Part shown: one piece after another, positions 1-56,688 of the stretch
Numbering within the stretch: the first letter of the stretch is position 1
How the letters are laid out: each line of letters starts with the position of its first letter
NCBI GenBank assembly: GCA_039817025.1
Contig: JBCBWQ010000001.1
Coordinates: 25,422-89,421 of the forward strand
DNA length: 64,000 nt
Direction of reading: 5' to 3'
From: Pseudomonadota bacterium
Lineage (GTDB): Bacteria > Pseudomonadota > Alphaproteobacteria > Caulobacterales > Hyphomonadaceae
Notes under the pieces: model-generated
What the model was told of the DNA's origin: nothing
Database searches by the model: none
The model's input: the letters and a program-made list of their open reading frames with translations, nothing else
Program-made: the position numbers and the translations under genes

Positions 1-1344
1 GGCAAGGCGCGCCGCAGAAATATTGATAGATAGCTTTGGCAAATTAAAACCTGTCGCATCGAGTTTTTGAATCTCCTTGCCAAGTGCTTCAAACACTATT
101 GAATCAATTTTGTCCTCAATTCCAATTTTTCCAGCCACATCTAGAAAATCAGCGGGTAAGAGCAGTCCCCTTTTTGGATGTTGCCATCTGACAAGAACCT
201 CAGCGCAAGCGATCATCCCGGTTTTTGCATCAATAATTGCTTGAAAATACGGAACAAACTCTCGCCTATCACAAGCATCCAATAGTTCGGTTGCTAGCCT
301 TTTAGTGGCATTTGCGTCAGCATGCATCTCCGATGTAAAGTATGACCATCGACCTCGCCCGTTTGCCTTTGCGTGATAAAGAGCCGCGTCGGCGTCCGCC
401 ATGATCTGTTCCGGAGTTGGCATGTCCTTTGTTGCAATCGCAACGCCAACGCTAGCACTTCGAGAGATACCTCGTCCCTCAAAGGAGAACTTCTTCGCTA
501 ACTCTGATATGATTGAGTCTGCGAGGCCACTGATGTTGAGCGCGCTCGTCCCAAGAGGCTTCAGAACCACAAATTCATCGCCTCCAAGCCTTGCAACAGT
601 ATCATTGCTGTCACTTAAGTGCCGAAGTGTTTTGGCGACAGATATGAGAAGCGCATCTCCAGCTTCATGTCCAAGCGTGTCATTTACCGACTTGAAACGG
701 TCTAGATCAACGAAGATCACTGCAAACTCTTCACCCCTTTTTCGAAGCGATGCCAAATAGTCATTTAGCTCGAGTTCAAGGTGCCGGCGATTTGACAGAC
801 CAGTTAATGGATCTTGGTTCGACTCCTGCGATACAATTGTTGCAAGCTCGCGAAGTCGTTTGTTTTCTCTTTCTAGGCGAGCGATTTCATTTTCAAAGTT
901 TTCTTGAGAGTCTAGGTTTGCTACTCTAGGACAACCTGACATTTCGAGTGAGGCGCCGGTTTCTGGATGGTCTAATTCTACTAATGAGCAAAGCCACCAT
1001 CGATTTCCACTTAGTGGATCTGAAAGAGGTGCCCAAGTTATCCGAACATATAGCTGTCCACCATCTTTGCGATTTGTCCGAGTGGTTACAGAGAAAGCCT
1101 CCCAACTCATCAGTTTGTCAATTATGAGAAGGTGGGTGGCTTGATCCATGTCACGCCCGATAATTATGGTACCGCGTCGCCCAATTACTTCTTGTACTTC
1201 GAAACCGGTTATCCGAGAAAATGCCAGGTTACACCACTTCAATACCATGACCGCCCCGTCTTGGCTGCTAGCCAATGCGAGTGCCAGACCTTCGGAACTC
1301 TTTAGCGGTACTTGTTCTAAGATAGACTTTGGCGGTGATGACAT
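1..1344 (-). CDS. PAS-GGDEF-EAL c-di-GMP turnover protein (3' end lies beyond the left window edge)
   Basis: Own minus-strand translation from the ATG at 1342-1344. It is absent from the ORF track because no stop lies inside the window. N-terminal PAS-like segment and coiled linker, then EEFAVIFVDLDRFKSVNDTLGHEAGD...RLGGDEFVV (GGDEF), then FVPYFQAIID...AEVLVRWQHP...LLLPADFL (start of EAL). The frame stays open to position 1. Confidence 0.85.
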   Translation of the reverse strand, partial: MSSPPKSILEQVPLKSSEGLALALASSQDGAVMVLKWCNLAFSRITGFEVQEVIGRRGTIIIGRDMDQATHLLIIDKLMSWEAFSVTTRTNRKDGGQLYVRITWAPLSDPLSGNRWWLCSLVELDHPETGASLEMSGCPRVANLDSQENFENEIARLERENKRLRELATIVSQESNQDPLTGLSNRRHLELELNDYLASLRKRGEEFAVIFVDLDRFKSVNDTLGHEAGDALLISVAKTLRHLSDSNDTVARLGGDEFVVLKPLGTSALNISGLADSIISELAKKFSFEGRGISRSASVGVAIATKDMPTPEQIMADADAALYHAKANGRGRWSYFTSEMHADANATKRLATELLDACDRREFVPYFQAIIDAKTGMIACAEVLVRWQHPKRGLLLPADFLDVAGKIGIEDKIDSIVFEALGKEIQKLDATGFNLPKLSINISAARLA

Positions 1345-1853
1345 CTCTTACTCTTTCGGCGGAAATGGATATCGTGCAGTTCTTGGGGGCTTAATATCCA
1401 GCGCGCCCTAACGCGCTTGTCCAGCGTCGGCGGTCACTCTCGCTAATCGGGGCAGAAGGAAATCAGTGCGTGACGATGAATGCACCAAAGCTCCGAGTCC
1501 TACATTGCGGCGCACCCGTGCCCAATAATTAGTTCGGACAGACCGATTTATTGCATCGGTTTTTGTAGTCTTTTGCGCAAGCGTGAACGTCATTTCCCAA
1601 CCTTAGGTAGGCTCTACAACTGTCTAGGTTAGCTGTATTATGTCAACGGATGGGCTATTTTGTGACGCTGCCATCTTGGTTTAGTGAGTAGCTAGCTAGC
1701 CGAATTAGCAGCACCATGATTGACTAGCTACAGACCCATTTCCAGACTTATCAAATAGGAGAACACTTTGTCTGACGTCAGCACCAATGGGACAGTTTAG
1801 GCCGATTTGATACGAGAGGGTTTCTGGCACATCGTAACCACCAAGGAGTAGAG

Positions 1854-2198
1854 ATGAGACAGAAACCCGGAACGCGAAAGAACCACGGTGAGAAAGTCGT
1901 CAAAGACATCCGCCGCGCGAACCGCAAGCAGTATTCGGCCGAAGAGAAGATCAGGATCGTGCTGGACGGCCTGAAGGGCGAGGACAGCATTGCGGAACTG
2001 TGCCGCCGCGAAGGCATCGCTCCGAGCCTATATTACAGGTGGTCCAAGGAGTTCCTCGAAGCTGGAAAGAAGCGCCTGGCGGGCGACACGGCGCGTGCAG
2101 CGACCTCGACCGAGGTCAAAGTGATTTCCCCCCGACATCTGGGCCATTGCGAACTGGAATTTTCCATCTTTGAATGGACTAAGGAGGAAGACTCATGA
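1854..2198 (+). pseudogene. IS3-family transposase OrfA fragment, interrupted
   Basis: KQYSAEEKIRIVLDGLKGEDSIAELCRREGIAPSLYYRWSKEFLEAGKKRLAGDTAR is a typical IS3 OrfA HTH/leucine-zipper N-terminus. Similarity is lost after about aa 90, where the next IS begins. Confidence 0.7.
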
Positions 2199-2497
2199 AG
2201 CGGAAGCGTTTCACAGAAGAACAGATCATAGATGTGCTGAAGGAGGACGGAGGGGTCGCGAAGGCTGACGACATCTGTCTGCGGCACGGCATCAGCTCGG
2301 CGACGTTCTACAGCTGGCGGAACAAGTACGGCGGCCGGGATGCGTTTGAGGCCAAGCGGCAACGCGAGTTGGAGATCGGGAACGCCAAGCTCAAGCGGAT
2401 CGTCGCAGACCAGATTCTGGACATGTCGTCGATGAAGGAACTGCTGGCAAAAAACTGGCGATACTCATTGTCAAGCGCTAAGCTGCGGCCTTGTTAA
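2195..2497 (+). CDS. IS3-family (IS407-like) transposase OrfA
   Basis: MKRKRFTEEQIIDVLKE...ICLRHGISSATFYSWRNKYGG...LEIGNAKLKRIVADQ. It is a close paralog of the OrfA at 4304. Confidence 0.8.
   Translation: MKRKRFTEEQIIDVLKEDGGVAKADDICLRHGISSATFYSWRNKYGGRDAFEAKRQRELEIGNAKLKRIVADQILDMSSMKELLAKNWRYSLSSAKLRPC
2449..2455 (+). other. A AAA AAC slippery run, candidate -1 frameshift site of the IS3-type OrfA/OrfB
   Basis: An A6C run lies at the very end of OrfA, where the OrfB frame (2491..) takes over. IS3-family elements classically frameshift on A6G/A6C. Confidence 0.4.
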
Positions 2498-2694
2498 TGA
2501 GCGAGGTGGGCCAGAGCGAACGCAGGGCCTGCCGGATCGTCAGGCCAGCGCGGTCAGTGCAGCAGTATCAGCCGCTGTTCAAGTATGACGCAGCAGCGAT
2601 CAAGCGCCTGAAAGAACCGGCATCTGAGAACCGGTGCTATGGCTATCTTCGGTTGCCCGCGATGCTGCGCCGCGAAGGTCTGGTTGTGAACTAA
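2491..2694 (+). pseudogene. IS3-family OrfB N-terminal stub (67 aa)
   Basis: SERRACRIVRPARSVQQYQP...NRCYGYLRLPAMLRREGLVVN matches the OrfB N-terminal region, then stops. The DDE core is missing. Confidence 0.7.
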
Positions 2695-3085
2695 AAGCCA
2701 GAGTAAGCTTTGTGACTGGCGTGCTGGCCTTGTCATCCTTAGGGACGGGCCGTTCCCCGCTGGGAAGTTTTGTTTGCTTCCTGCGACGAACCGTTGCTGT
2801 CCCTGGCACGTCGTAACACGAAGTGTTAAAACCAAGCGACCAGAGCAATTCACCTTCCGCCATGATTGAGTCAACTGGTGGCCCCGACCTAGTGCCCATG
2901 GAGCCTGTGTGTATGGGTCAGCTCAAGGATCACAGTTAGAGATCATCTTCCTGACAATCTTTCTTCCGACGTTTGCCTCAATGAGCGCAACACACACTAT
3001 TCGGTGCAGAGTCGGCGTGCCAGTATCTCAAACTCAGTACTCACAAGTGGAGCACCAATGGGAAGAGCAAGAGTAAGGACGAGGC

Positions 3086-3421
3086 ATGAGATGGCGAACG
3101 CAAAGGTGGGTCGTTGATTTTCCGACCAAGGTCCTGTCCAAGGAGGATCCTCACTCGCTAACTGTTTCCTCGGTGAGCAGTTCAGGTGCTAGGCTGGATG
3201 GTGATCACGACCTTGAGGAAGGCGACCAGATACGCATTAGTTGCTTGACAGATCAGATACATGCGACCGTTGTTTGGGTGAAAGACGGCACATGCGGGAT
3301 CAAATTCTCGCGCCCAATTGGGCAAAAGCATCTTGCAGTCTTTCGTAGGCCGGGGGGCAGAGGCTTGACTGTTTGGGCACGTACTCCGCCGTCAAGCCTC
3401 CACGGGTTTCGCGAATTGTAG
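3086..3421 (+). CDS. Small stand-alone PilZ-like protein (degenerate c-di-GMP motifs)
   Basis: 111 aa. TVSSVSSSGARLDGD...GDQIRISC...IHATVVWVKDGTCGIKF fits the PilZ beta-barrel pattern. SxSxxG replaces (D/N)xSxxG, and RWRTQR replaces a clean RxxxR. Confidence 0.6.
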   Translation: MRWRTQRWVVDFPTKVLSKEDPHSLTVSSVSSSGARLDGDHDLEEGDQIRISCLTDQIHATVVWVKDGTCGIKFSRPIGQKHLAVFRRPGGRGLTVWARTPPSSLHGFREL

Positions 3422-3499
3422 CAAGAGCTGTTTAATGCCGATAGTGCATTACGTTCCGTGCACGCATAAACACAGGTACCTGTCTTTCAACCTGGCCTG

Positions 3500-3606
3500 C
3501 GCAATGCCCGCCCTTTGATCGTGGGATGGCGCGACGACTACAGTGCTCGCCGTACTGCGTCTGGCTTCGAAGGGCTCACCTCACGAGAGTATCACCAATG
3601 GTCATA
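3500..3606 (+). pseudogene. IS3-family OrfB C-terminal fragment
   Basis: Own translation gives RNARPLIVGWRDDYSARRTASGFEGLTSREYHQWS*. This is the conserved ...AWRxDYNxxRPHSSLGxxTPxE... tail of IS3 OrfB in degraded form. Confidence 0.6.
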
Positions 3607-3935
3607 AGAAGACCAACCCCCATGGGAACTAATCAATAAGAGCAAACTCCAAGGGGAGCCAGCCAGTGGGCACTCGAGGCCGCCGGGGACGTATTCTGTT
3701 TTCCGCATTTAATTTAACCTAGGCTCCAAATTCTGGTTGGCTTCGCAAAGGCACTGGATCACAATGATTATGTGGGGTCTCGTCAGAGGCTGGATATAGG
3801 CATTTGAGCCTTTTTTCTGCCTTGTTGCGGTACGTAGTGGGTGTGGGCGTTCGCCTCAGCCTCTCCTGTAGGTACTTTGTGTGACGTGCACGGTTCGTGT
3901 TTTCACCGAGGATGCTGGGCTCAACGTAATTCGGG

Positions 3936-4277
3936 TTGGGTTCCTCGGAAAAAGGGGAAAATATCAATATGGATTGCGGCACTGGCTGCGAGGAGTCGAC
4001 GACGGATCTAGACAAAGCTCTGGGGGGATTGTCGGACAACCACCGAAAGCTATTTCATGCGCTTTTTAAAGGGTCTGGCGAAACAGAAGGACTCCTGACG
4101 ATCGACACGATCGACCTTTTTGTGGCGCTGAAAAAGGATGCTCGACTTCTAAGCCTTATCGAACTGGCGATGAGTATCGACAGCGATGACCTGGACCAAC
4201 TTGTCTTTACGGCCGAGGATTACTACGCTCAGGCGGTGGTGACCTGCTCCCCTGAAGAGTCCGGTGTTTTGAATTAG
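3936..4277 (+). CDS. Small protein paralogous to the C-terminal domain of PraR-like XRE regulators, without HTH
   Basis: DLFVALKKDARLLSLIELAMSIDSDDLDQLVFTAEDYY aligns with EFVAHAISDPVVLSLMEIAAALGSEERDQLLFFAEDLQ of the ORF at 13411..13626. The start is uncertain, and the stop abuts the truncated IS left end. Confidence 0.5.
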   Translation: MGSSEKGENINMDCGTGCEESTTDLDKALGGLSDNHRKLFHALFKGSGETEGLLTIDTIDLFVALKKDARLLSLIELAMSIDSDDLDQLVFTAEDYYAQAVVTCSPEESGVLN

Positions 4278-4303
4278 CCTGTTCTCCAACAAGGAGACAG
4301 ACG

Positions 4304-4642
4304 ATGAAGAGAAGCCGTTTTAGCGAAGAACAGATCATTGGCATGCTGAAGGAGCATCAAGCTGGGCTGGGCGCGAAGGAGCTGTGCCGCAAGCACGGGA
4401 TCAGCGATGCGACATTCTACAAATGGCGATCGAAGTACGGCGGCATGAAGGTGTTCGATGCTCGGCGATTGAAGACGCTGGAATCTGAGAACGCCAAACT
4501 GAAGAAGATGCTGGCTGAGCAGATGATGGACGTGGCGACTGACCTCGAACGCGATGTTGAAGTGGCAGGAGGACCGCCAAGTCGGCTGGCACTAGCTCGC
4601 GCCCGGAAAGCCCATGCAGAACGGTCTGGTCGAGAGCTTCAT
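4304..4642 (+). pseudogene. IS407-like OrfA fused to the distal part of OrfB (internal deletion)
   Basis: MKRSRFSEEQIIGMLKEHQAG...KHGISDATFYKWRSKYGG...ENAKLKKMLAEQMMD, then similarity is lost. A shifted frame reads APGKPMQNGLVESF. Confidence 0.75.
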
Positions 4643-4647
4643 GTATA

Positions 4648-4658
4648 GACGGCCCCGC
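4648..4658. repeat. Left subterminal inverted repeat GACGGCCCCGC of the IS110 element
   Basis: It is the exact reverse complement of 5967-5977. Confidence 0.7.
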
Positions 4659-4903
4659 GGGCGCAAGTGTTTTGATCGCGATCGTCATCGGCGGGTGCGT
4701 TCATGTATTCGGCCTGTTCATGCAGCCTTTACATGACTGCTGGCCCTGATGATGTCCGCGGATCGAGGCCTCATCAACGGGACGCGCTTTGGTGCGCCTA
4801 AAGCTCTCCGGGCTTTCTCGATCCTCAGCTCTGCCGATTTGCCATCACGCTTTCATTGCACTTGTGCCATCTCGTTTTATCGCAGTTGATTTGACCTTCG
4901 TGG

Positions 4904-5917
4904 TTATGCTGTGCGGAACACCTCGCCAGTTGTCAGCATTGCCCAAATGGTCCGCGCCAACTTGTTTGCGACGGCAACGGCAACGACCATGGGTCTGCGT
5001 CGTTCGAGCATTGCTTCGATCCATGGGCCATCAACGCGTGAACGCGCCTTTGGATAGCGCACCACCGTTCGCGCCCCCAAAACGAGCAGGTGGCGGAGGT
5101 ATCGATCACCTTGCATGGTGATGCCACCGAGCCTGTTCTTACCGCCCGACGAGTTCTGTCGCGGCGTCAGGCCAAGCCAGGCGGCAAACTCGCGGCCAGA
5201 TCGAAAGGCCGACGGGTCCGGGACTGTGGCCGCGAAGGCCGTTGCTGTGATTGGCCCGATCCCTGGTATGGTCGAAAGCAAGCGGCAGATCGCATTGGTC
5301 TCGTGGATCTCAGCCAACCGGGCGTCGATCCCATCGATCTGCCGGTTAAGCGCATCCAGTTGTCCAACGAGCGCGTCCAAAGCGAAGCACGCATCCTCTG
5401 GCAGGTCTTCTCGTATCTCGTCCAGCTTTGCGACAAGAGTATCGACGCGATGTCTGCCCTGCGCGACGATAACTCCGTACTCGGCCAAGTGCGCTCGGAA
5501 CGCACAAGCCGCCATGGTGCGTTGCCGAACCAAAAGGCCTCTTGCCCGATGAAGCATCAGAAAGGCCTGATCCTCGCGTGACTTGACCGGGACAAAGCGC
5601 ATGTTTGGCCGAGTTACTGCTTCAAAGATGGCGGCGGCATCAGCGGCGTCGTTTTTCGCCCCGCGCCGAACATACGGTTTGACGTAGCCGGGAGGAATGA
5701 GGCGCACGTCATGTCCAAGCCGTTGTAGCTGGCGCGCCCAATTGTGGGCAGTCGCACAGGCCTCGATGCCGATCAGGCAAGCGGATGAGGCCTCAAAGAA
5801 CGGTGGCAACTCGCGGCGCGTCAGCCTCCTGCTATCAATCGTACATCCAGATGCATCGACGACATGGACATGGAAAACGCTTTTGGCGAGGTCGAGGCCA
5901 ACGGTGGCAGGGGTCAT
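4904..5917 (-). CDS. IS110-family transposase (DEDD type)
   Basis: MTPATVGLDLAKSVFHVHVVDA...IGIEACATAHNWAR...NDAADAAAI...LSTIPGIGPITATAF...GREFAAWLGLTPRQNSSGGK. The preferred start is the ATG at 5917, preceded by AAGGAG. The 406-aa track ORF over-extends upstream. Confidence 0.9.
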   Translation of the reverse strand: MTPATVGLDLAKSVFHVHVVDASGCTIDSRRLTRRELPPFFEASSACLIGIEACATAHNWARQLQRLGHDVRLIPPGYVKPYVRRGAKNDAADAAAIFEAVTRPNMRFVPVKSREDQAFLMLHRARGLLVRQRTMAACAFRAHLAEYGVIVAQGRHRVDTLVAKLDEIREDLPEDACFALDALVGQLDALNRQIDGIDARLAEIHETNAICRLLSTIPGIGPITATAFAATVPDPSAFRSGREFAAWLGLTPRQNSSGGKNRLGGITMQGDRYLRHLLVLGARTVVRYPKARSRVDGPWIEAMLERRRPMVVAVAVANKLARTIWAMLTTGEVFRTA

Positions 5918-5966
5918 GGTAAGCTCCTTTTGCAACGTGGGACCACCATACGGTCCCTTCTCAGCA

Positions 5967-5977
5967 GCGGGGCCGTC
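5967..5977. repeat. Right subterminal inverted repeat (GCGGGGCCGTC) of the IS110 element
   Basis: It is the exact reverse complement of 4648-4658. Confidence 0.7.
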
Positions 5978-5983
5978 TTCCCC

Positions 5984-6181
5984 ATCAACGGACGGATGCG
6001 CGAGGAATGCCTGAACGAACACCTGTTCCCGTCTCTGCGCCATGCCTGCCGCATGATTGCGGCATGGCGCGCCGACTACAATCAAAACCGGCCTCACTTC
6101 AGTCTCGCTGGCCGGACGCCACACGAATATGCTAACCGGTCAAAGGACCACCAAAACCTGAACAGAGCTAACCTTAGTTAG
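5984..6181 (+). pseudogene. Remainder of the IS407-like OrfB C-terminus
   Basis: INGRMREECLNEHLFPSLRHACRMIAAWRADYNQNRPHFSLAGRTPHEYA. Confidence 0.8.
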
Positions 6182-6205
6182 CGGACTCAACGGGGAGTAG
6201 GTCAC

Positions 6206-7225
6206 CTAGATTCCGTTCTGGCGACCAGGCAGTGCGATCTGATCTTCAGCCCGCAATAGCCGTGTTTGGATTCTTGGTTTTCTTGGAGTGACGGGAACGG
6301 TTGGCGCATTGTTGGTCTCTCGCTCCGGCGTCGTCGAAGGATTGGTGCCGTGATGTTCGTAGTGAGATCTGAATACCCCTGTTACGCGCTTTACGGGCCC
6401 GATATTTATCGCGATCTTGTCCAAGACAAATCGAAGCGACATTTCCGCCTCAGGACTGGATCTGTGGATCGTTTCAGCAAGTCTACTTAAATCGAATTTG
6501 GTCTGACCTGAAAATGCGCAAATGAATATTCCATTACCACTATATGTCAGTCTCGATTTACCGTCATGAAAATGCTCAATTATTTTTCGTGCGACAAACT
6601 GCAGTATCTCAAGGAAAACATCTGGGGTCACTTTAGGGAAAATGGTCTCTGCATTCGAAATCTCGATGGCAACAATTCGCATGCTAAATCGCTCTGGTTT
6701 AGACATCGCCTCAAAGTATGCGTCGAATTTACTTCGGCTAAGACAGTTTCGCACACCGCCGATCCTTACTTTATCCGCGAAGGTCAGTTTTTGAAAAGAC
6801 GGGTCTGTATCCAAGGGAGTCTGTAGCGGATGCGAAGCGCTTTGATTGGTGCTTTTCGCCGTATTTGCTTGAGAAGTTCTGCCCAAGATCTGGTCTGGAA
6901 CATCCTCACGCAAGAGATTTCGTTCTGCCCCGAGTTGATGAGCCGTCTTGAAAAGATCAGCGCTCTTTCCCGCATCGATTGTCCATAGCTTCGTCTCGGA
7001 AAATTGAGGAGACTTGCCAACAGTGTTGCACACAATCAAGCCAGATGAATTCGGCAGCCCCAGATCGACGAGCACGTGAGAGGCGCCGTACTCTTGATCA
7101 CCCAATACAGCCAAAGCTGCTCCTGCATCCGACACCGACGTAAATTCAATTGTTGGCATGGACGCAAGGATTTCCCTGCATGAGCTTGTGATCTTCTGAT
7201 CAGCACTTACAAGAAGCAACTTCAT
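6206..7225 (-). CDS. Receiver domain plus degenerate GGDEF-like domain protein
   Basis: MKLLLVSADQ...HVLVDLGLPNSSG is receiver-like. A S/T/P-rich linker follows. The GGDEF-fold region (RNCLSRSKFDAYFEAM...VAIEISNAE...LTYSGNGIFICAF) has SGNGI in place of GGDEF. The stop codon lies 2 nt from the IS3 right terminus. Confidence 0.6.
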   Translation of the reverse strand: MKLLLVSADQKITSSCREILASMPTIEFTSVSDAGAALAVLGDQEYGASHVLVDLGLPNSSGLIVCNTVGKSPQFSETKLWTIDAGKSADLFKTAHQLGAERNLLREDVPDQILGRTSQANTAKSTNQSASHPLQTPLDTDPSFQKLTFADKVRIGGVRNCLSRSKFDAYFEAMSKPERFSMRIVAIEISNAETIFPKVTPDVFLEILQFVARKIIEHFHDGKSRLTYSGNGIFICAFSGQTKFDLSRLAETIHRSSPEAEMSLRFVLDKIAINIGPVKRVTGVFRSHYEHHGTNPSTTPERETNNAPTVPVTPRKPRIQTRLLRAEDQIALPGRQNGI

Positions 7226-7559
7226 AGCACCCGTCCATGGTTTCCCAACACAACGGACATTGCTGCAACATAGGCCAGAAAGCGGCAAGAATTGGGAAAT
7301 GTTTGTCGAGCTCTCTTTCTTACACCTTGTACCACTTGCGTGAGCCCCGTGTTACGAGCCTTGCGCAGCTGTACAAAACGCTCTTAGACATCTAGCAGCC
7401 CCAACAGACTCTGCACTACAGAAGACCTTTCCGAGTGCGAGTTTTTCTAGCTTCTCCGGGGCAATCCAACGGTCCGCCTTTGTAAATCATTGGGCCAGCA
7501 AGGGTCTGACAAGTATTGCTTTTTATTTCCGGCTTTGAACCGGTCTGCACGTGTTTCTA

Positions 7560-7829
7560 CTATGCCGCAAGCGGGATTTCGATTGGCGTGCCGATAGCAG
7601 CGTGCTCGCCAAGGAAGCTCTTCAAGTCGTCGCCCTGAATGCCGGTCTCTTCGAAGTCGCGCAGCTGTTCGGCCAGCCGCAAAAATGAAGCATAGGGCAT
7701 CGACTCGAGCTGCGCACGCATTGCCAAGACTGTTGGGTCATTGCGACGAATGCGGGTCGTAGGGCGCTTTGGTTGAATGCTGGTTTGGCACTGCATTGAA
7801 TTACTCCGTATACCGTTTACACACCTCAC
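7560..7829 (-). CDS. Hypothetical small protein
   Basis: ORF only, with no recognisable motif and an alternative start at 7796. Confidence 0.25.
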   Translation of the reverse strand: MRCVNGIRSNSMQCQTSIQPKRPTTRIRRNDPTVLAMRAQLESMPYASFLRLAEQLRDFEETGIQGDDLKSFLGEHAAIGTPIEIPLAA

Positions 7830-8227
7830 TAATAGGCGCGAACTCGTTCGCTTGTTGGACCCAACTGCGGCGCTTTCGAGGTATGTTGACTATGTCTGAC
7901 GGATGGTCCCGGCCCGCCCTATTTCGCACGCTTTAAATCATGCCCCATTTGAGCTTCTTTCGGCGATGACCGGTGATCTTCGGCGATAAGGCATCTACGA
8001 TGTTGGGTTCTTCTGGCCGGTCACGTTCGGACTGAGCAAAAATACTTGTGAGCGGCCTTTTAAGGGTCGCGGCTTGCCGCTATCTGCGTGGTTTAACGGC
8101 AGCTGCATCTTCGCCGCCGCGATTGGATGACGACGAAACATCCTATCGTCGCCCCGCCGTTAGGGTCAGGACCCATTTACTTCCGATAGTCGCCGTGACC
8201 CACGGCTCAAAAGAACAAGCGGTAAAC

Positions 8228-8984
8228 ATATTTGATCTCTGTTGGCTGACGGACGCGCAAATGGTGCGCCCAACCCCCTTCTTCCAAAACTCCTACGGTA
8301 AGCCACGCCTTGATGACCTACGCGTATTGAGCGGGATTATTTTCATCAAGCGCGATGGGTTGAGGTGGCCAGACGCACCTGCGGCCTATGGCCCACACGC
8401 GACTTTCTAAAACGGATGGAAGCGGTGGAGCGACAAGGGTATCTTCGCTCGGGTGATGGCCGGTCTGGCCGCCGAACACTGCGAAGATAAGGCAGTGATG
8501 ATCGACGCCATCTACCTAGGAGCCCACCGCACAGCGACCAGTTTAGGCGTTAGAAAGGGGGCGTGGACGCCTGATCGGTCGCACGAAAGGCGGCATGAAC
8601 ACCAAGCTGCCTGCCATCTGCGACAGCAAAGGCCCACCGCTCAATCTGTTCGACACGGCCGGGCAAGTCAGCGACTACATCGGAGCGCGTGCACTACGAA
8701 GCAGGGTGCCGGACATTGATTGGTTGGTTCCGGATCGCGGCTCTGACGCCGATTAGTTACGAGAAGTGTTGAAAAACAAAGGAATACGCGCCTGCATCCC
8801 CTGCCGGAAGCAGCCCAAGAAACCGATAAAGCACGACAAGCGCCTCTACAATCGCCGCAACTGGATCGAGATCATGTTCGGCAGACTGAAGGATTGGCCG
8901 CGCGTGGGGAACTCATATGACCGCTATCCGAAAGTTTCCCTCTCGGCATTCGCCCTCGCTGCAACTGGGATCTATTGGATGTGA
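8228..8984 (+). pseudogene. IS5-family (IS427-like) transposase, start codon lost and multiple frameshifts
   Basis: Three consecutive frames read (I)FDLCWLTDAQM...GKPRLDDLRVLSGIIFIKRDGLRWPDAPAAYGPH / WKRWSDKGIFARVMAGLAAEH...MIDAIYLGAHRTA / KNKGIRACIPCRKQPKKPIKHDKRLYNRRNWIEIMFGRLKDW. The first codon is ATA. Confidence 0.8.
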
Positions 8985-8993
8985 TTCCCGATG

Positions 8994-9275
8994 CTAGGCG
9001 GCGATGGCGTATTCTTCGTCGGGCTTGTAGCTGCAGATCTTTTCCACAATGCGATCGGCGTCTTCGATGCACTTAACGCGGCGCAGGACGAACTGAATGG
9101 CTTCGGGGAAAGTATCCTGCTGCTCCGAGCAACGTTCCAACGCCCCTTCAAGGTCGCTGAGGTGTTGTTCGCTAAGCCCGCCGACCACGTCAAAATAGGC
9201 TTGCTTTTGGGCCTTGATCTCGCGCAGGCGGATGACTTCGGAGGCACGCTTCGGAGTTGGGATACATGCAATCAT
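8994..9275 (-). CDS. Hypothetical protein (93 aa from the ATG at 9275)
   Basis: ORF only. Its 3' end abuts the IS5 pseudogene, so the C-terminus may be altered. Confidence 0.3.
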   Translation of the reverse strand: MIACIPTPKRASEVIRLREIKAQKQAYFDVVGGLSEQHLSDLEGALERCSEQQDTFPEAIQFVLRRVKCIEDADRIVEKICSYKPDEEYAIAA

Positions 9276-9934
9276 CGTTATCACTCTTGACTGGCCGCGA
9301 AATGGCGCGGCTTTTAACGCTTTCCGTTTACTTACCGTCCACAGAGTGCCCGGTCTTGAAAAGGGCATTCGTGAGCGGCATCCCATTCTAGGATCTGTGG
9401 AACCGACTTACTCGTTACACTCAAGGCCGGCCAGCACACATGGCCATCCCTGAAACACACTCGGTACTCTTACACTACACCGTCGAAACTCGACGAACTG
9501 GTTACTGGCACTTGTTACACTCTCGACTGCGCCACCCTCGCGTTCGATGACGCTTGTTTGAGGCATTTGACCGTGGTTAACAATTCGCTAAATCTTCAAC
9601 ATGGTGGTGTTTTCTTTCACACCACGTTGGATGATTTGTCACCCATTGAGCCGCCTAGCGTAGGTCAGAGTATCGGTAACCCGCTGGGTCGACTGCTCAT
9701 TGTGCATTCTGGTCTCCAGCTTGCTATGGTCTAGAAATCCTAAACGAGGAAACGCAAATGGCTGTGGCTTTCTTGCCTGCCTTTGAAGCGTCTTCTGGGA
9801 ATTGACGCTTGTCCGTCTAGCTTTGAGCCGGAACGACGGCTTTTATGACGTTCGTGGATGCCGCCAAAGTGCGCCGGTCGTGTGTAAGTACGATGTTGCG
9901 CCGGGGAACTTGACCATCCGGCGCAACGGTTTCG

Positions 9935-10690
9935 CTAGGCCACGATGCTCATGTCGCGCAAGAGTTGGCGTTTCGTTGGCAGTTGCCGTTCTTTGGAGAG
10001 CGCTTTCGGAGATGTCTCCAAGAATTGTTCCATATCTGCACGTCTCATCCAAACAAACGTCTCTTCTGCCTCTAGCTCTTCGTCGGGACCAATCCATGCG
10101 CATGGTTCGCACCGTGAATAGCCGTAACGCACCGGAATGCCCTTCATCGCTAATGCGGTTGGGACCAGCCCGAATAGATAGTCAGGCGACCAAATCTTAA
10201 GTGTGATTTCGAATACGATGCGCGACATTAGTGCTGTAAAACCCTGGTTTCGCAGGCCATCGTCCCCACCCTTCAACCAGAATTCACCATGGTAGCAAAC
10301 GCGGCCCGTTATTTGGTCAAGAGACGGCAACCGTGAGAAATGGGTTTGATCCGGGTCTGCGATCATTCCTGGTGAAAGATACTTGTGCCGGTGGTCTCTC
10401 AGATGCTCTTGAAGAGACGTCTTCGACAGATCCATCAGTCTTATTGCTTGTGTGTGCACAACCTCTCGGCGGTCATTGAATGCGCAAACCCAGAAGGCGT
10501 TTTGGGCATCAATGAAAGAACTTGCAGCGTCGAAAATCGGATAGAGTGCCGTACGGTCGGATTGTGTGTTTCTAAGGCGTCTATATGCAACAAAGTCTCC
10601 GCCGATCTCGATCCGCAAACCCGCGGCCTCGAGCTCTTTTACAATATTAGAAACATTTACGATTGTGGTGAAAAGGCTTAGGGCAGTCAT
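9935..10690 (-). CDS. Hypothetical protein, possibly a GNAT-fold acyltransferase
   Basis: 251 aa. ...YHGEFWLKGGDDGLRNQGFTALMSRIVFEI... contains an (R/Q)xxGx(G/A/T)-like motif in a beta-strand/helix context typical of GNATs. No LuxI signature was seen. Confidence 0.35.
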   Translation of the reverse strand: MTALSLFTTIVNVSNIVKELEAAGLRIEIGGDFVAYRRLRNTQSDRTALYPIFDAASSFIDAQNAFWVCAFNDRREVVHTQAIRLMDLSKTSLQEHLRDHRHKYLSPGMIADPDQTHFSRLPSLDQITGRVCYHGEFWLKGGDDGLRNQGFTALMSRIVFEITLKIWSPDYLFGLVPTALAMKGIPVRYGYSRCEPCAWIGPDEELEAEETFVWMRRADMEQFLETSPKALSKERQLPTKRQLLRDMSIVA

Positions 10691-11255
10691 TTCGTTTTCT
10701 CCTTGTGTGCAGCGTGAGGAGGGAAATTATCAATCGCTTACCAAATCTCTCCAATAGAATTTTTGCAATATAAGTTTGGAAAAGGAAAATTTCATCAATT
10801 TCATGAAAATATAAGTATTATACACGAAATTTGAGCTTTTTGATCGCTCGCTTGCGCGGTTCGTCGTCAAGCCGTAGGGCTTGGAATTAAAGGGTACAAG
10901 AGGCATTATGCGCTAGGTGATTATTACGTGCACTACAGCGCGTCACCTTCCAGGTCTGAATTTGGATTGGAAGCTCCCACTTTTTCCGAGGGAGTTGGGT
11001 CATTTGAATTGCCAGTTTCTCTACTGAGAGGCCGAGGAAGTCCAAAGACGTTAATTGCGCTCAAATCATTTTTGAACGAGTGCATGCGCCGTTCTGATGT
11101 AACTTAATCTAGCCCACCCTAGAGAATAGTCTGGGCGAAACATTGCCTGCGGAATCCCTTTCGTCTCCTACGCCTCTACGAAGCTATGGGTCCTATTCTA
11201 CCTTGAAAAGAAATATACTTCCGGATTGGTGAGTGCCGTTACACCAGAGCTGATG

Positions 11256-12131
11256 CTACGTGAACACGTCGTAGTTTTCTGCAGGACTTGGGTTCATTTC
11301 TTGCGCTAGTGCATCTATTTCGACCTCCCTTGTAATGATCACCAGAACGGCCAATACCGGTGTTTGGTCAGGAAGCAACAGAGTCATAAGCAGTCTTTGG
11401 AAGGTAACGGGTACCGGTTCCGGGCTGTCTTCCCTCGGGAGGTGCGCGAACACATGATCCAGTCTGGCCTCGCCGCCTCGATGGACTTTAGAATAAGTCT
11501 CCGAAACCATGCGATCAAATTCGGTGCCGGCCTGGTCCTCGCTTGACAGGTTGCCAACGGCACTTTTTGACCATGCCCATCCAAACCACCGTGTGTATGC
11601 AGACTGATCACCGATCTCCACGCAGAGCCATCCGCGAGGATCTTTCTTGTAAATGATAATATGGGGTCGAATTTCCTGGAAGGCCAAGGACTCCAACTTT
11701 GCCGATGATGCTGCCCAGGCGGCAAGCGCCTCTTGAACGAGGGGGCTCGCTTTGTGTGACATGTGACAAAGCGGGTGTTGTTGGGAAAATGATTCCCGGC
11801 CATCTCCATCAATACAGTGTGACGTCTCAAGCTGCGGCCTAGTAGGTGTCGTAGTGCTAGCGCGCGCGCACCAGCGTTCGGTGAGCGATAGGATTGCCTT
11901 TGCATCGTCGACCATTGCTGCGCCAAGCGGGGTCAGTGCATAATTGTTCCGATTTAACGCAAACAGCGGTGCGCCTTTGAGTTCCTCAAGGTGGGAAATA
12001 TAGCGCCGCACAGTCTGCCGCGTCAGACCTAGTTCGGAAGATACTCGTGTGAGGTTCGGGCTTTTCGAGAGCGCAATGAATGCTCGGAGCATCTCGAGGG
12101 TCTTGTTATCGCCAATGTGCTTCTGAGCCAA
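11256..12131 (-). CDS. Transcriptional regulator with a LysR-type N-terminal HTH and an unrecognised C-terminal domain
   Basis: LEMLRAFIALSKSPNLTRVSSELGLTRQTVRRYISHLEELKGAPLF is a LysR HTH. The remaining 200 aa do not show the usual LysR substrate-binding pattern by eye. Confidence 0.65.
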   Translation of the reverse strand: MAQKHIGDNKTLEMLRAFIALSKSPNLTRVSSELGLTRQTVRRYISHLEELKGAPLFALNRNNYALTPLGAAMVDDAKAILSLTERWCARASTTTPTRPQLETSHCIDGDGRESFSQQHPLCHMSHKASPLVQEALAAWAASSAKLESLAFQEIRPHIIIYKKDPRGWLCVEIGDQSAYTRWFGWAWSKSAVGNLSSEDQAGTEFDRMVSETYSKVHRGGEARLDHVFAHLPREDSPEPVPVTFQRLLMTLLLPDQTPVLAVLVIITREVEIDALAQEMNPSPAENYDVFT

Positions 12132-12398
12132 GTCTATACATCACAGAGATATTTTCAGTGCCTGCATGATATATCATACGCCTTCGGTCGATGGCTATAC
12201 CAACGGAGACAAATAGACTTGGAATTCACACCGCGCACTCGGGCACTTACGCGTGCGCGGAGGTGTTTGGTCCGCTTGTGCGGGTATTTGGGAGTACACA
12301 GAGGTTGATTGATCGACATCACTATGTGGGCGAACTTGGTGCAGGGCCATGGCACCGCGCGCAATTGGCATTTGATCGCGATGGCTTCCGAGCGTGCA

Positions 12399-12698
12399 AT
12401 GGCGAAGTTTGACATAGACCCAACCGAATTCGATGTCGCCGTAGGTGCAGTTTTGAGGTCGCAGCGTAAGAAAGCCGGTTTGGAGGCAAAGCTCGTTGCC
12501 GAGGCGATTGGAGCCAAAGTGGAACAGATTTCGCGCTACGAAGCTGGCACTAACAAAGTCTCAGTTATGCGCCTTTGCCAGTTGGCGAACGTCTTTGATG
12601 TACCCCCATCCGCATTGATGCTGGAAATTGAAGTGAGAGTTTCACAGGGTGCCAAGCTGTCGCGGTCAGACAGCTTCAGGAAAAATCAAAGAACTTAG
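12399..12698 (+). CDS. XRE-family HTH protein, PraR-like paralog lacking the C-terminal domain
   Basis: LRSQRKKAGLEAKLVAEAIGAKVEQISRYEAGTNKVSVMRLCQLANVFDVPPSALMLEIEV is near-colinear with the ORF at 56260..56688. It ends about 45 aa earlier. The start was chosen by alignment; the track ORF starts at 12309. Confidence 0.7.
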   Translation: MAKFDIDPTEFDVAVGAVLRSQRKKAGLEAKLVAEAIGAKVEQISRYEAGTNKVSVMRLCQLANVFDVPPSALMLEIEVRVSQGAKLSRSDSFRKNQRT

Positions 12699-13410
12699 CC
12701 CAAACGGCTTCGCGGGCATTTGCACGGAGCTCTCGTGTGGCCCGAATGGCACTGATGCTTGCGAGAAGACGGCAGCACACCAGCGTAGCTGTTGCTGGGT
12801 GCATCAAGCCTGGTTCTCTAAATCCGATTTGCGGAAGCAGCAGCGATCTGAGGCGAGGGAACGATTTTGTATGGTGTCGCGTTCAGTAAGTGGGCTCCGC
12901 CTACCAACTTGCACGTTGCGTCGCGCAAATAACGGACTATGGGAAACGCTACCGCAACAGCTTTGAGGTTTTATCATAGACAGCTTCAAGATGCTCGAGC
13001 AGTGTGAAGCCGATGACAGCAGATAGTGCAACGCCGGATACGAGTAATCTGCGCGTGGCTGGTTCTTTAGCGCTAGAAAGCGGCTCAACATGCGCCCGCA
13101 CGTTATATCGCACGCATGTGCACTCCTCTACAGAGTTGATGGCAGCGTTGTATCGCCGCTTTTCGAATCCATGCCTGCCGATCAAGATTCTACCCTAGGT
13201 TAATGGTTGAAGTGAGCATTCCTAATAAGGGTTGATTTGTCAACATCAGCCAGTAATGTGGCCATATGAGTGGTGTTATAGCCGCTGGTCTGCATGGAGT
13301 GTTTAGGCGTACGCGTATGCTGTCGGGATGTAGTTTGAAACCTAATTGCCAGAACTGGCCGAGATGATAAGCAGGCCCGGGGGGGCGAGGAGACTGGTGA
13401 AGAAGGTGAA

Positions 13411-13626
13411 ATGGCGATCGACAAGGATGTACCTGCGCTTGCTGAGCGTTTTTTTGATGGGGCCAAAGAAGACTATGAGTTTGTGGCGCATGCCATAAGC
13501 GACCCAGTCGTCCTGTCGCTAATGGAAATTGCCGCCGCGCTCGGGTCAGAGGAGCGCGACCAACTGCTGTTTTTCGCAGAAGATCTGCAGTTGGAAGCAA
13601 TGCGGTGCAAGAATGGCAACGGGTAG
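13411..13626 (+). CDS. 71-aa protein resembling the PraR-type C-terminal domain only (no HTH)
   Basis: FFDGAKEDYEFVAHAISDPVVLSLMEIAAALGSEERDQLLFFAEDL. The F..(12)..FV..ISDP.V...L..L..AL pattern matches the C-terminal part of PraR/PhrR-like regulators as I recall them. It is convergent with the XRE gene at 13706..14122. Confidence 0.55.
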   Translation: MAIDKDVPALAERFFDGAKEDYEFVAHAISDPVVLSLMEIAAALGSEERDQLLFFAEDLQLEAMRCKNGNG

Positions 13627-13705
13627 CCTAAGCTTCCTGATCGGATACTGCAAAGAAGACATGATCCAGGGGTTGGTCAGAGACTGGCGCCGCCAGTGAA
13701 GAAAT

Positions 13706-14122
13706 TCACTTTCGCTGACTGCGCGACGCAAGCTTCGCTACTGTGGCAAGTGCCGCGCTGAAGTCTTCGTTATCCATTTCCACCAAAGACGACGTCAAAA
13801 TGCGGCCGGTCGAGGAACCAAGAAAGGCAAGCTCTTGGGCGCGTTCATGCGTTTGCGATGCTTCTGGATCGCGAAGTGCGTTTTCAAGCTCACTTAGAAG
13901 CGCCACGGCATCAACGCCGACTGCTTGTGCAATTGCAAGCAGTCTGTGTACGGAAACCCGATTGAGCCCGACCTCATACTTCTGAATTTGCTGAGCTGAA
14001 GTGCCCACTGAGCGCCCAAGGTCTTCTTGTGAAAGCCCGGCCGATTTGCGGTGAAGCCGGATCAGGTTGCCCAAAGCTTCATCAGTCTTCTGTGGGTCAG
14101 GTGCTGTCATCTGTGCCCGCAA
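13706..14122 (-). CDS. XRE-family regulator, PraR/PhrR-like (HTH plus C-terminal domain)
   Basis: LIRLHRKSAGLSQEDLGRSVGTSAQQIQKYEVGLNRVSVHRLLAIAQAVGV..., then ...ELAFLGSSTGRILTSSLVEMDNEDFSAALATVAKLA. Confidence 0.8.
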   Translation of the reverse strand: MRAQMTAPDPQKTDEALGNLIRLHRKSAGLSQEDLGRSVGTSAQQIQKYEVGLNRVSVHRLLAIAQAVGVDAVALLSELENALRDPEASQTHERAQELAFLGSSTGRILTSSLVEMDNEDFSAALATVAKLASRSQRK

Positions 14123-14303: not shown

Positions 14304-15632
14304 CTATTCAGTGTCAGCCAAGGCGGTTGCCAATGCTTCAAAGGCCTCCTCAGCCGAAACGTTTTGGTTCCCGTCCTGGATAAGCCTTGCCTCCAATGTG
14401 CCCCGGACCGCCACTGCTCGATCAACACTTGCGTCGGATCCTTTCTGGTAGGCGCCGAGCCGGATAAGGTCTGCCATCTTTTCGTACAGAGACAACGCTT
14501 CCCTGGCCTGTCTCAGCATCGCGTTCTCCTGATCCGAATGGCACCCCGGCAGCATCCGAGAGACGCTACGCAAAAGGTCAACGGCTGGGAAACGGCCACT
14601 TTCGGCTATGGTGCGATCCAACAGAATGTGGCCGTCCAGCATGCCGCGAACGCCGTCCGAGATTGGATCGTCCAAATTGTCGCCCTCAGCGAGTACTGTA
14701 TACAGCGCTGTGATATCGCCTTGTTGCTGGCTTCCTGGGCCAGATCGCTCGACCAAACGCGGAAGTTCGGCAAAGACCGTTGGGGGAAAGCTACGTTGAG
14801 CGGGAGGTTCGCCGGTTGCGAGGCCAATCTCGCGCTGCGCGTGTGCAAACCGGGTGACGCTGTCGAGGATTAGCAGGACGTGTCGCCCTGAGTCGCGAAA
14901 GTGCTCCGCCACGGCGGTGGCTGTCCAGGCGGCTTGGCGGCGTGTAAGCGCCGGCTCATCGCCAGTGGCCACCACGATAACCGAGCGCGCCATGCCAATG
15001 GGCCCCAGGTCACGCTGCACGAAGTCTTGCAGCTCGCGCCCGCGCTCGCCAATCAGGCCAATGACGACAACGTCTGCCTGTGCCTGCATGGCCAGTTTTG
15101 CGATCAGGGTCGATTTGCCAACGCCGGGGCCTGCGAAGATTCCCATCCGCTGACCCCGGCAGATCGGTGCAAATACATCGATGCTGGACACCCCGGTGCT
15201 TAGCCGCGCGCCGGTCCGACGACGCGCGTATGCTGGCGGGGGGGCATTGCGTGCGCAGCGCTGGGCGGTTCCATTTTGCAATGGGCCCTTGCCATCAACC
15301 GGCATGCCGAATGCATTCACGACGCGGCCGATCCAGGCGTCATGCGGGCGCAAGGTCGAACCACCCGTTTGTACTTCCACTGGGTCGCCCTCGGTGACGC
15401 CGTCCCAGTTTCCAAAGGGGAGCACGCTGCAACCGAGGCTTTGGATGCTGACGACTTCGCCTCGAACAGGCCCGTTTGCGCCATGTACAAGACAGTGCTG
15501 CCCGATCCCCAAAAAGCCACCAAGGCCGCGGACTGTCAGCAAAAGGCCCGAGACGCTCGCGACTTCACCTTCCAACCGTGTTCCGGTGGTTGTGGCAAAA
15601 ACACTATTAAGATTAGCCAAGCCGGGAGTCAT
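14304..15632 (-). CDS. fliI: Flagellum-specific ATPase FliI
   Basis: Walker A GPGVGKST, then VVVIGLIGERGRE, and a T3SS/F1-ATPase-like C-terminal region. Confidence 0.95.
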   Translation of the reverse strand: MTPGLANLNSVFATTTGTRLEGEVASVSGLLLTVRGLGGFLGIGQHCLVHGANGPVRGEVVSIQSLGCSVLPFGNWDGVTEGDPVEVQTGGSTLRPHDAWIGRVVNAFGMPVDGKGPLQNGTAQRCARNAPPPAYARRRTGARLSTGVSSIDVFAPICRGQRMGIFAGPGVGKSTLIAKLAMQAQADVVVIGLIGERGRELQDFVQRDLGPIGMARSVIVVATGDEPALTRRQAAWTATAVAEHFRDSGRHVLLILDSVTRFAHAQREIGLATGEPPAQRSFPPTVFAELPRLVERSGPGSQQQGDITALYTVLAEGDNLDDPISDGVRGMLDGHILLDRTIAESGRFPAVDLLRSVSRMLPGCHSDQENAMLRQAREALSLYEKMADLIRLGAYQKGSDASVDRAVAVRGTLEARLIQDGNQNVSAEEAFEALATALADTE

Positions 15633-56259: not shown

Positions 56260-56688
56260 CTAGGCGTTTTCGCTTGTATTCCGGTGCTGGGCTAGCAGAA
56301 GCACGAGTTGAGAGATCAGGGACACCTGTGACGGGTCCATCGTTCTTTGCAGAACAAAAAGAAGCTTTCGGCCGTCCTCGGTGGAAGACAAGTGATCCAG
56401 GCCGTTTGAAACGCTGCTTGTGTCAGGAATGACTTCGATCTCTGCAATCAGGCGTGATGCAGGTACACCCAGGGCATGTGATAGCTGCATGAGCCGGGAC
56501 ACGGACACCTTGTTTGTGCCTTCTTCGTATCGTTTGATTTGTTGTACCGATACTCCTGCGGCTGTCGCCAGATCCGCCTTGGTCAATCCGCCTTGCTTTC
56601 GGTAGCTGCGCAAGACCTCTCTGAGCGCCCGATCATATTCCGCGGGCGTCAATGGCGCCCCGATCATACGCTCCAAATTCTTCTTCAT
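56260..56688 (-). CDS. XRE-family regulator, PraR/PhrR-like (HTH plus C-terminal domain)
   Basis: LRSYRKQGGLTKADLATAAGVSVQQIKRYEEGTNKVSVSRLMQLSHALGVPASRLIAEIEV, then ...LSSTEDGRKLLFVLQRTMDPSQVSLISQLVLLLA. Confidence 0.8.
   Translation of the reverse strand: MKKNLERMIGAPLTPAEYDRALREVLRSYRKQGGLTKADLATAAGVSVQQIKRYEEGTNKVSVSRLMQLSHALGVPASRLIAEIEVIPDTSSVSNGLDHLSSTEDGRKLLFVLQRTMDPSQVSLISQLVLLLAQHRNTSENA

Follow-up and report, generated by a model that had tools for sequence, protein, structure and literature searches.

ORF71, a conserved small acidic protein encoded convergently with a PraR/PhrR-like regulator beside a flagellar gene cluster, and its candidacy as a partner of that regulator

The ORF71 locus

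The stretch of DNA analysed here (64,000 nt, positions 25,422 to 89,421 of contig JBCBWQ010000001.1 from a Hyphomonadaceae bacterium, hereafter the window) contains a 71-codon open reading frame, ORF71, which is encoded convergently with the gene for an XRE-family regulator, XRE138 (Table 1). A first-pass annotation had proposed that the ORF71 protein mimics the C-terminal domain of this regulator and thereby acts as an anti-repressor. Our analysis supports a modified version of this proposal, as ORF71 is a genuine gene, belongs to a rare and undescribed protein family whose genes recur close to those of PraR-like XRE regulators, and may encode a binding partner of XRE138 which is not a detectable copy of it. 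Several basic elements of the first-pass annotation were borne out: the position and sequence of ORF71 with its ATG startcodon, the absence of a helix-turn-helix (HTH) domain, to which we can add the absence of any other Pfam or NCBIfam domain, and the location of the gene pair directly beside fliI at the edge of the flagellar cluster, which is evident from the gene order. The neighbours of ORF71 are ORF78, the XRE genes, a LysR-like gene and fliI. For XRE138, an upstream TTG at position 14122 would give a protein of 138 aa (ORF 13706..14122, minus strand), and the most likely start is the ATG at position 14110, as called in public records.

Table 1. Coordinates of ORF71, its neighbours and corresponding features in related loci (numbered with the prefix L)
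Locus	Feature	Coordinates	Strand	Remarks
Window	ORF71	13411..13626	+	71 codons, ATG start (ORF list, sequence)
Window	Putative initiation region of ORF71	13392..13410	+	Shine-Dalgarno (SD)-like GAAGAAGGTGA ending 2–3 nt 5′ of the ATG (sequence reading)
Window	Convergent spacer, ORF71 stop to XRE138 stop	13627..13705	.	79 bp
Window	XRE138, PraR/PhrR-like XRE regulator	13706..14110	-	134 aa; HTH_3 (Pfam)
Window	fliI	14304..15632	-	Followed by the flagellar cluster, with divergent flgB-flgC-fliE-fliQ… genes
Window	XRE129	12309..12698	+	129-aa XRE gene
Window	ORF78	12949..13185	-	78 aa, between the XRE129 and XRE138 genes
Window	27-bp non-coding block	13218..13244	+	ATTCCTAATAAGGGTTGATTTGTCAAC
Window	LysR-like gene	11256..12131	-	291 aa; LysR HTH (PF00126) at residues 12–70
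Window	Third XRE paralog	56260..56688	-	HTH region 45% identical to that of XRE138
Window	ORF113, long-type ORF71 paralog	3936..4277	+	113 aa, isoelectric point 4.1 (tblastn, alignment)
Window	PilZ-domain gene, single domain	3086..3421	+	Upstream of ORF113 (Pfam)
Window	IS3-type OrfA fragment and IS110 transposase	4304..6124		Between ORF113 and the receiver-domain gene
Window	Receiver-domain gene	6206..7288	-	Pfam
L015	ORF71 ortholog	6472..6693	-	Possible ATT start
L019	ORF71 ortholog	6562..6783	-	Possible ATT start
L026	ORF94 and XRE153 region	6114..7285		Prim-Pol and DUF5681 genes
L031	Integrase, XRE143 and two family genes	269..3000
L017	Permease operon with family gene	307..4009
L032	Permease operon with family gene	1405..5114
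L010	ORF78 ortholog	6698..6934
L013	ORF78 ortholog	1656..1892
L016	ORF78 ortholog	2114..2350
L014	ORF78 ortholog	about 6931..7212
L010	27-bp block	6639..6665
L013	27-bp block	1598..1624
L014	27-bp block	6872..6898
L016	27-bp block	2055..2081

ORF71 is a conserved gene

A word-indexed search with ORF71 alone returned only near-identical copies from the same species of metagenome-assembled genome (MAG), and phmmer, run exhaustively over 1.84 billion representative proteins, gave two proteins only, both from unclassified MAGs. Orthologous loci were located through contigs carrying relatives of XRE138; the source organisms are uncultured. Lack of conservation in relatives was an outcome that the first-pass annotation had named as speaking against its proposal, and we found syntenic orthologs of ORF71 in four other lineages. 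In L013 the XRE protein is 84% and the small ORF 67% identical to those of the window (71 aa, spacer 80 bp), in L014 70% and 60% (77 aa, spacer 81 bp), in L015 49% and approximately 38% (spacer 69 bp), and in L019 48% and approximately 32% (spacer 156 bp). The convergent arrangement of the XRE gene and the small gene is kept in all five lineages including the window, and in L015 and L019 the two genes are inverted relative to fliI while still being convergent to each other; the pair thus travels as a unit.

Comparison of the orthologs by the Nei-Gojobori method gave nonsynonymous (dN) and synonymous (dS) divergences of 0.232 and 0.687 between the window and L013, 0.321 and 1.278 between the window and L014, and 0.187 and 1.383 between L015 and L019, corresponding to dN/dS ratios of 0.14–0.34 at dS of 0.7–1.4. 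The reading frame stays open and retains its conserved residues across the lineages, while the non-coding flanks are largely unalignable. ORF71 is hence a genuine gene under purifying selection. It is extremely improbable that it represents a chance or decaying frame without a protein product, for which one could cite the extreme rarity of the family and the weak or non-canonical starts of some orthologs (TTG in L013, no ATG, GTG or TTG in L015 and L019); besides the dN/dS ratios and the open frame, the six residues that are invariant over 16 sequences and the 98% hhalign probability between subfamilies (see below) argue against it. Other sources of conservation were also considered: no Rfam family matched, and the convergent spacer has no conserved sequence, no terminator-like site and no unusual folding (z=-1.1). 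Terminator-like matches occurred inside coding sequence only, at the rate expected from shuffled sequences, and the recurrence of GGTTGATNNGTCAA in the window did not exceed chance.

The translation starts of all orthologs are putative, as read from their SD context. A purine-rich SD sequence lies just 5′ of the TTG in L013 and of the ATG in L014. In L015 and L019 the conserved N-terminal part is not preceded by any ATG, GTG or TTG. Both have an in-frame ATT 3 nt after a strong SD-like GGGGGAAGGG, at the position corresponding to residue 3 of ORF71. These two orthologs may begin at this rare ATT startcodon, and in public gene calls their product is shortened to 36–46 aa.

A family of small acidic proteins

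ORF71 has an isoelectric point (pI) of 4.2, with 15 Asp and Glu against 6 Lys and Arg residues. An AlphaFold2 model, made from a shallow alignment, predicts three helices (residues 7–29, 32–43 and 46–68), with a mean predicted local distance difference test (pLDDT) score of 79 and scores of 86–92 over residues 31–60. A tblastn search with the ORF71 orthologs brought up a longer paralog in the window (ORF113), and further relatives, among others in L010 and L017, with ORF113 being 50% identical to ORF107 of L010 and 61% to ORF91 of L027. A profile search of 5.8 billion proteins gave 13 convincing clusters (E 8e-27 to 3e-7), all without a name, with full-length members of 71–113 aa and one cluster consisting of a 36-aa truncated gene call; none of the 13 contained a Pfam domain or was fused to an HTH. 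A metagenome scan added 11 family loci.

From these alignments we defined the 'DQLLF' family, with a short type (ORF71) and a long type (ORF113) whose subfamily profiles match each other in hhalign with a probability of 98%. Its members range from 66 to 113 aa and are all acidic (pI 4.05–4.94), and share the core D(P/A)..S(L/I).(E/D)(I/L)(A/S)…(D/E)QL(L/V)F.AE; ORF71 has the core motif as well as the pI and length of the family. Six positions are invariant in 16 aligned sequences (S36, Q51, L52, F54, A56 and E57 in ORF71 numbering). Searches of ORF71 and all family members against Pfam, NCBIfam, PHROGs and PADLOC gave nothing significant (best DUF5952, E 0.096), and a profile search of the PDB with the family gave no match (best a designed repeat protein, E 0.053). 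Likewise, Foldseek searches with the ORF71 model found no match with E below 5 in the PDB and none with E below 3 in BFVD, where the top weak matches were phage repressor and HTH proteins with low root-mean-square deviation over 32–40 residues, without being significant. The DQLLF family is real, rare and undescribed, and its properties (small, acidic, all-helical and domain-free) suit a binding protein, rather than an enzyme or a DNA-binding protein.

A PraR/PhrR-like regulator is encoded opposite ORF71

XRE138 was compared with the Sinorhizobium protein encoded next to lnt, taken as PhrR. XRE138 proved to be PraR/PhrR-like, as the first-pass annotation had stated, with 33–36% identity to the S. 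meliloti PhrR ortholog (E about 1e-17) over 123–126 aligned residues, running from 6/10 to 126/130 by numbering and spanning the HTH as well as a C-terminal region with a FL.S..G..L signature. We considered a Cro/C1-type HTH at approximately residues 19–73 followed by a C-terminal extension of approximately 60 aa that aligns with PhrR as defining this type, and XRE138 has both, with an HTH_3 domain at residues 21–72 (Pfam) and a C-terminal region of approximately 55 aa carrying the signature FL.SS.G..L. In contrast, the other XRE protein of the locus, XRE129, aligns with PhrR over the HTH only. The best phage matches of XRE138 were to Sinorhizobium phage PBC5, Agrobacterium phage Atu_ph08 and the phiCbK group, the same phages that have been named as carriers of homologs of CdxA, the PraR ortholog of Caulobacter (PMC10688885).

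Next to the praR ortholog, on its downstream side, lie metK and a tRNA methyltransferase gene (PMC10790750), and the S. meliloti gene is located downstream of lnt, whereas XRE138 is located between ORF71 and fliI. Since it lies outside the praR-type neighbourhood, XRE138 is a paralog, and the praR ortholog is a different gene. In its AlphaFold2 model the HTH is predicted with pLDDT scores of 83–95, and three C-terminal helices (residues 88–98, 100–111 and 114–133) with scores of 46–62. Fold searches using Foldseek and sequence searches with XRE138 matched HTH domains only, with nothing found for the C-terminal domain, and there was a weak NCBIfam match to the RstR family (E 1.4e-8), which is below the cut-off.

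No detectable similarity of ORF71 to the regulator C-terminal domain

In Bacillus subtilis, the antagonist SinI is homologous to the C-terminal multimerisation helices of the XRE-family repressor SinR, and the first-pass annotation proposed a comparable relationship for ORF71, which would duplicate or mimic the C-terminal oligomerisation domain as a free protein and poison the regulator via mixed oligomers. The resemblance of ORF71 to the C-terminus of the convergent XRE protein, on which this proposal was built, did not withstand comparison. BLASTP of ORF71 against either of the adjacent XRE proteins gave no alignment at E ≤ 100, and Smith-Waterman alignment with the XRE138 C-terminus scored no better than shuffled sequences (z=0.07, p=0.44, 2000 shuffles). 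Profile comparison of the small family with the XRE138 family by hhalign, both local and global, gave probabilities of 0.2–0.5%. Against a broad PraR-like C-terminal profile, hhalign gave probabilities of 0.7–2.6%, compared to 98% for the positive control, the short against the long subfamily. The top local alignment of both the short and the long subfamily was indeed in the register that had been proposed (hydrophobic-x-D-P, followed by the last helix), but with these low probabilities. Given the negative sequence and profile tests, the resemblance between ORF71 and the XRE protein is at chance level.

The pattern F-x12-FV-x2-ISDP-x-V, which had been put forward as common to ORF71 and PraR/PhrR-type regulators, is only partly present: the ISDP tetrapeptide is shared with S. 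meliloti PhrR, but the spacings differ between the proteins, being F-x12-FV-x-ISDP-x-V in PhrR and F-x8/9-FV-x3-ISDP-x-V in ORF71. Alignment of ORF71 with S. meliloti PhrR scored z=2.5 (p=0.02), which was driven by this tetrapeptide, and alignment with three other PhrR-like proteins gave z-scores of 2.1, -0.96 and 0.48. ISDP is not conserved in either family, being replaced by INDP, LRDP, LQDP and KKDA in ORF71 orthologs and by IADP, IQDD, IPDG and IEDK in PhrR relatives, and EE.DQLLF.AED, the best-conserved segment of the small family, has no counterpart in the XRE protein. Both ORF71 and the XRE138 C-terminus are predicted to form three helices, yet of different lengths (23, 12 and 23 residues against 11, 12 and 20, the latter at low pLDDT), and neither the phmmer nor the profile search with the small family retrieved an HTH-containing protein. 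As far as sequence and profile comparison can tell, ORF71 therefore does not duplicate the C-terminal domain of the XRE protein, and differs in this respect from SinI; that it is a SinI-like mimic is highly unlikely.

Genomic context of the DQLLF family

Among 16 family contexts with enough flanking sequence to be informative, 11 have a PraR-like XRE gene within 3.5 kb of the family member, and the XRE proteins near the distant family members carry the same C-terminal signature as XRE138. Apart from the convergent pair beside fliI, this association was seen in three further architectures. In L010, L016 and L038, ORF107 is in tandem with XRE86, at 1.4 kb from XRE135. In L017, L032 and L034, the family gene is the last in an operon of YqcI/YcgG, cupin and amino acid permease genes, which is divergent from an AsnC-XRE operon. 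In L026, ORF94 is divergent (426 bp) from XRE153 amid Prim-Pol and DUF5681 genes, and in L031 an integrase gene and XRE143 are followed by a tandem pair of family genes encoded on the other strand. In these last two loci the family genes hence occupy a Cro-like position opposite a PraR-like XRE of 143–153 aa, in contexts resembling mobile elements. The permease operon with its DQLLF gene is also conserved in L029, L034–L037 and L042, and the AsnC/Lrp-XRE operon from which it is divergent in three loci is an overlapping one. Near the third XRE paralog of the window no DQLLF family gene was detected.

Several observations weigh against a link of the family to XRE regulators. Five informative contexts (ORF113 in the window, ORF91 in L027, L028, L035 and L042) have no PraR-like XRE gene nearby, with insertion sequence (IS) elements intervening in the case of ORF113. 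In the permease subfamily, the closest linkage is that with the permease gene, whose stopcodon overlaps or nearly adjoins the startcodon of the family gene, and not that with the XRE gene. L010 has kept the XRE gene beside fliI and lost the convergent small gene, and so the regulator works without it. The association of the short subfamily with fliI is as constant as that with the XRE gene, a convergent layout offers no argument from co-transcription, and orthologous loci are not independent observations.

The permease linkage and the loss in L010 keep an XRE-independent role of the family alive. The DQLLF proteins may be small adaptor or accessory proteins which do not bind the XRE regulators and are simply expressed under the control of regulators encoded nearby, with the amino acid permease, the receiver-domain protein RR360 or the LysR and AsnC regulators as possible partners. 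The family gene is immediately 3′ of, or overlapping, the permease gene in seven loci (L017, L029, L032, L035, L036, L037 and L042), is divergent from a LysR gene on a contig without XRE gene in L028, and the ORF113-type genes are found beside RR360, PilZ or GGDEF-EAL genes. However, the partners thus proposed vary by subfamily, while the PraR-like XRE is the sole gene family common to three of the four architectures, and is the only conserved neighbour in the two mobile-element contexts. We consider such an accessory role conceivable but rather unlikely.

The proximity to fliI could alternatively indicate a factor specific to the flagellum, such as an export chaperone (FliJ/FlgN/FliT-like) or a FlgM-like anti-sigma factor. 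All five short-type orthologs are located less than 1 kb from fliI, and flagellar chaperones are likewise small, acidic and helical. Against this, no flagellar family in Pfam or NCBIfam matched at E ≤ 1, the paralogs and distant relatives are found in non-flagellar contexts, and L010 contains both the flagellar cluster and the XRE gene without a small gene at this site, making a flagellum-specific function very improbable.

ORF71 as candidate partner of XRE138

The conclusion of the first-pass annotation, that ORF71 is a candidate anti-repressor, is supported by the repeated co-localisation with XRE genes, while the reason given for it, a copied C-terminal domain, is not. Based on the gene neighbourhood, we consider the chances about even that ORF71 is a partner or antagonist which binds the PraR-like XRE138, analogous to CinS, MmaP and SinI. 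ORF71, as a small acidic protein of three predicted helices, would bind the convergently encoded XRE138 and alter its DNA binding or oligomerisation, and the two proteins would thus tune the motility and attachment genes of the island next to the flagellar cluster. We infer all of these elements, namely the binding, its target genes and the direction of the effect, be it that of an antagonist or of a co-factor. The island includes two XRE genes, the LysR-like gene, the receiver protein gene and the PilZ gene, to which a cellulose-synthase-like gene and a PAS-GGDEF-EAL gene are added in L014 and L027.

A broader proposal, which we put forward tentatively and regard as doubtful, is that the DQLLF proteins form a hitherto unrecognised class of antagonists of PraR/CdxA-type repressors, encoded in cis and widely reusable, which would be deployed in chromosomal motility and attachment islands, the permease operon and mobile elements. 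In mobile elements, their Cro-like position would then constitute a repressor/anti-repressor switch without a second DNA-binding protein, and they would represent the anti-repressors that have been anticipated for CdxA-type regulators.

Comparison with known small-protein antagonists

The first-pass annotation referred to CinS as an established anti-repressor of PraR, and this is correct, as CinS is a small protein which binds and inactivates PraR in Rhizobium leguminosarum (PMC4149787; Frederix et al. 2011 cited there). Like CinS, ORF71 is small and lacks a DNA-binding domain, with a PraR-type XRE protein as (proposed) target and the switch between motility and attachment as (proposed) output. 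It differs by being encoded convergently beside its presumed target without a luxI-type gene nearby, and whereas the binding of CinS to PraR has been shown, that of ORF71 to XRE138 is proposed from the gene context. No homology between the two is evident, as judged indirectly for CinS from the phmmer relatives of ORF71 being two proteins of unclassified MAGs and from the profile search giving only MAG proteins without a name; pAtP4 carries cinX and not cinS.

A second example is MmaP of Methylobacterium fujisawaense, a 59-aa protein that co-purifies with the PraR ortholog and controls swarming (PMC10790750). It shows that the PraR-family regulators of different alphaproteobacteria can be bound by small proteins which are not related to each other, and ORF71 is proposed to have such a role. 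MmaP is controlled by quorum sensing, is encoded downstream of mmaI and acts on the syntenic praR ortholog, whereas XRE138 is a paralog beside fliI. ORF71 has the size of CinS/MmaP-type proteins (approximately 60–70 aa) and like them no DNA-binding or catalytic domain, but the N-acyl-homoserine lactone synthase gene (cinI or mmaI) with which these are co-transcribed has no counterpart among the adjacent genes, neither in the window nor in the related loci. For the Caulobacter ortholog CdxA, the authors expect 'undiscovered, distinct anti-repressors' (PMC10688885).

Outside the Alphaproteobacteria, the biofilm/motility switch of B. subtilis is governed by the XRE repressor SinR, which is neutralised by the small protein SinI (PMC4149787, PMC10688885). 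SinI is similar to ORF71 as proposed here in being a small helical protein encoded next to an XRE-family repressor, with sinI and sinR being in tandem and ORF71 and XRE138 convergent. In the CTX/RS1 elements of Vibrio cholerae, RstC reportedly acts as antirepressor of the XRE-type RstR by direct binding. This is most similar to the family members in L026 and L031, which are at an early-gene position opposite a PraR-like repressor near integrase or primase genes, while ORF71 itself is chromosomal and beside flagellar genes, and the likeness is one of proposed role, as the two are not known to be related in sequence. Finally, the 76-aa MirA protein of Agrobacterium is an anti-activator of the flagellar regulator Rem which sequesters its DNA-binding domain (bioRxiv 10.1101/2021.06.24.449765). 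MirA, like ORF71, is a previously unannotated small protein, and controls motility genes via a transcription factor; it differs in having an OmpR-type response regulator as target and in not being encoded adjacent to it, and phmmer with ORF71 detected no homology. With CinS, MmaP and SinI as precedents and further anti-repressors being expected, a protein that binds XRE138 is the most economical reading of ORF71.

Other conserved elements and the regulatory island

ORF78, which is located on the other side of ORF71 from XRE138 and is divergent from it, has orthologs in L010, L013, L014 and L016. It is 41–44% identical in L013 and L014, has a hydrophobic, membrane-like C-terminal half and no Pfam or PADLOC family, and is kept in L010, where ORF71 is absent. 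The 27-bp non-coding block ATTCCTAATAAGGGTTGATTTGTCAAC is near-invariant in the same loci although the surrounding intergenic DNA is unalignable. It contains the imperfect palindrome GTTGA-N4-TCAAC, and its minus strand reads TTGACA. The block lies 33–59 bp upstream of ORF78 and is retained where ORF71 is missing, so that it is probably the promoter or operator of ORF78. It is also a candidate site for the binding of an XRE protein. TTGCAA, the operator motif of PraR, is too short to be scored.

The G+C content is 47–55% to the left of fliI (window 1..14000) and approximately 60% in the flagellar cluster, and the region left of fliI contains several IS fragments in addition to the PilZ and receiver-domain genes (Pfam). 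This part of the window is a variable regulatory island, with gene order varying among related MAGs; compared to L027, the segment spanning ORF113 to XRE129 has undergone rearrangement. In the window, an IS3-type OrfA fragment and an IS110 transposase gene separate ORF113 from the receiver-domain gene; since in L027 the receiver gene directly adjoins the ORF113 ortholog, these IS elements have been inserted recently. The LysR-like protein is conserved in L013 and L027 (68–75% identity), and in the window protein only the LysR HTH was matched, without a match to the LysR substrate-binding domain.

Conclusions

PraR/PhrR/CdxA regulators are conserved in Alphaproteobacteria, where they govern attachment, swarming, symbiosis traits and phage development, and modulation of PraR-type activity is known from two genera only, via the unrelated, quorum sensing-linked CinS and MmaP. 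Small-protein antagonism of XRE repressors is already known; what would be new, provided that the interaction exists, is a family without sequence relation to those described, which is encoded in cis and without a quorum-sensing synthase. If there is no interaction, ORF71 is still a real orphan small gene, with a resemblance to PhrR in its ISDP tetrapeptide that fails across orthologs. In either case, a conserved and unannotated small-protein family is added to the catalogue. If ORF71 does bind XRE138, the DQLLF proteins would be a third unrelated family of small proteins directed at regulators of this type, linked in cis to PraR-like paralogs, and this would point to small-protein antagonism as a general means of controlling PraR-type regulators, including those of mobile elements.

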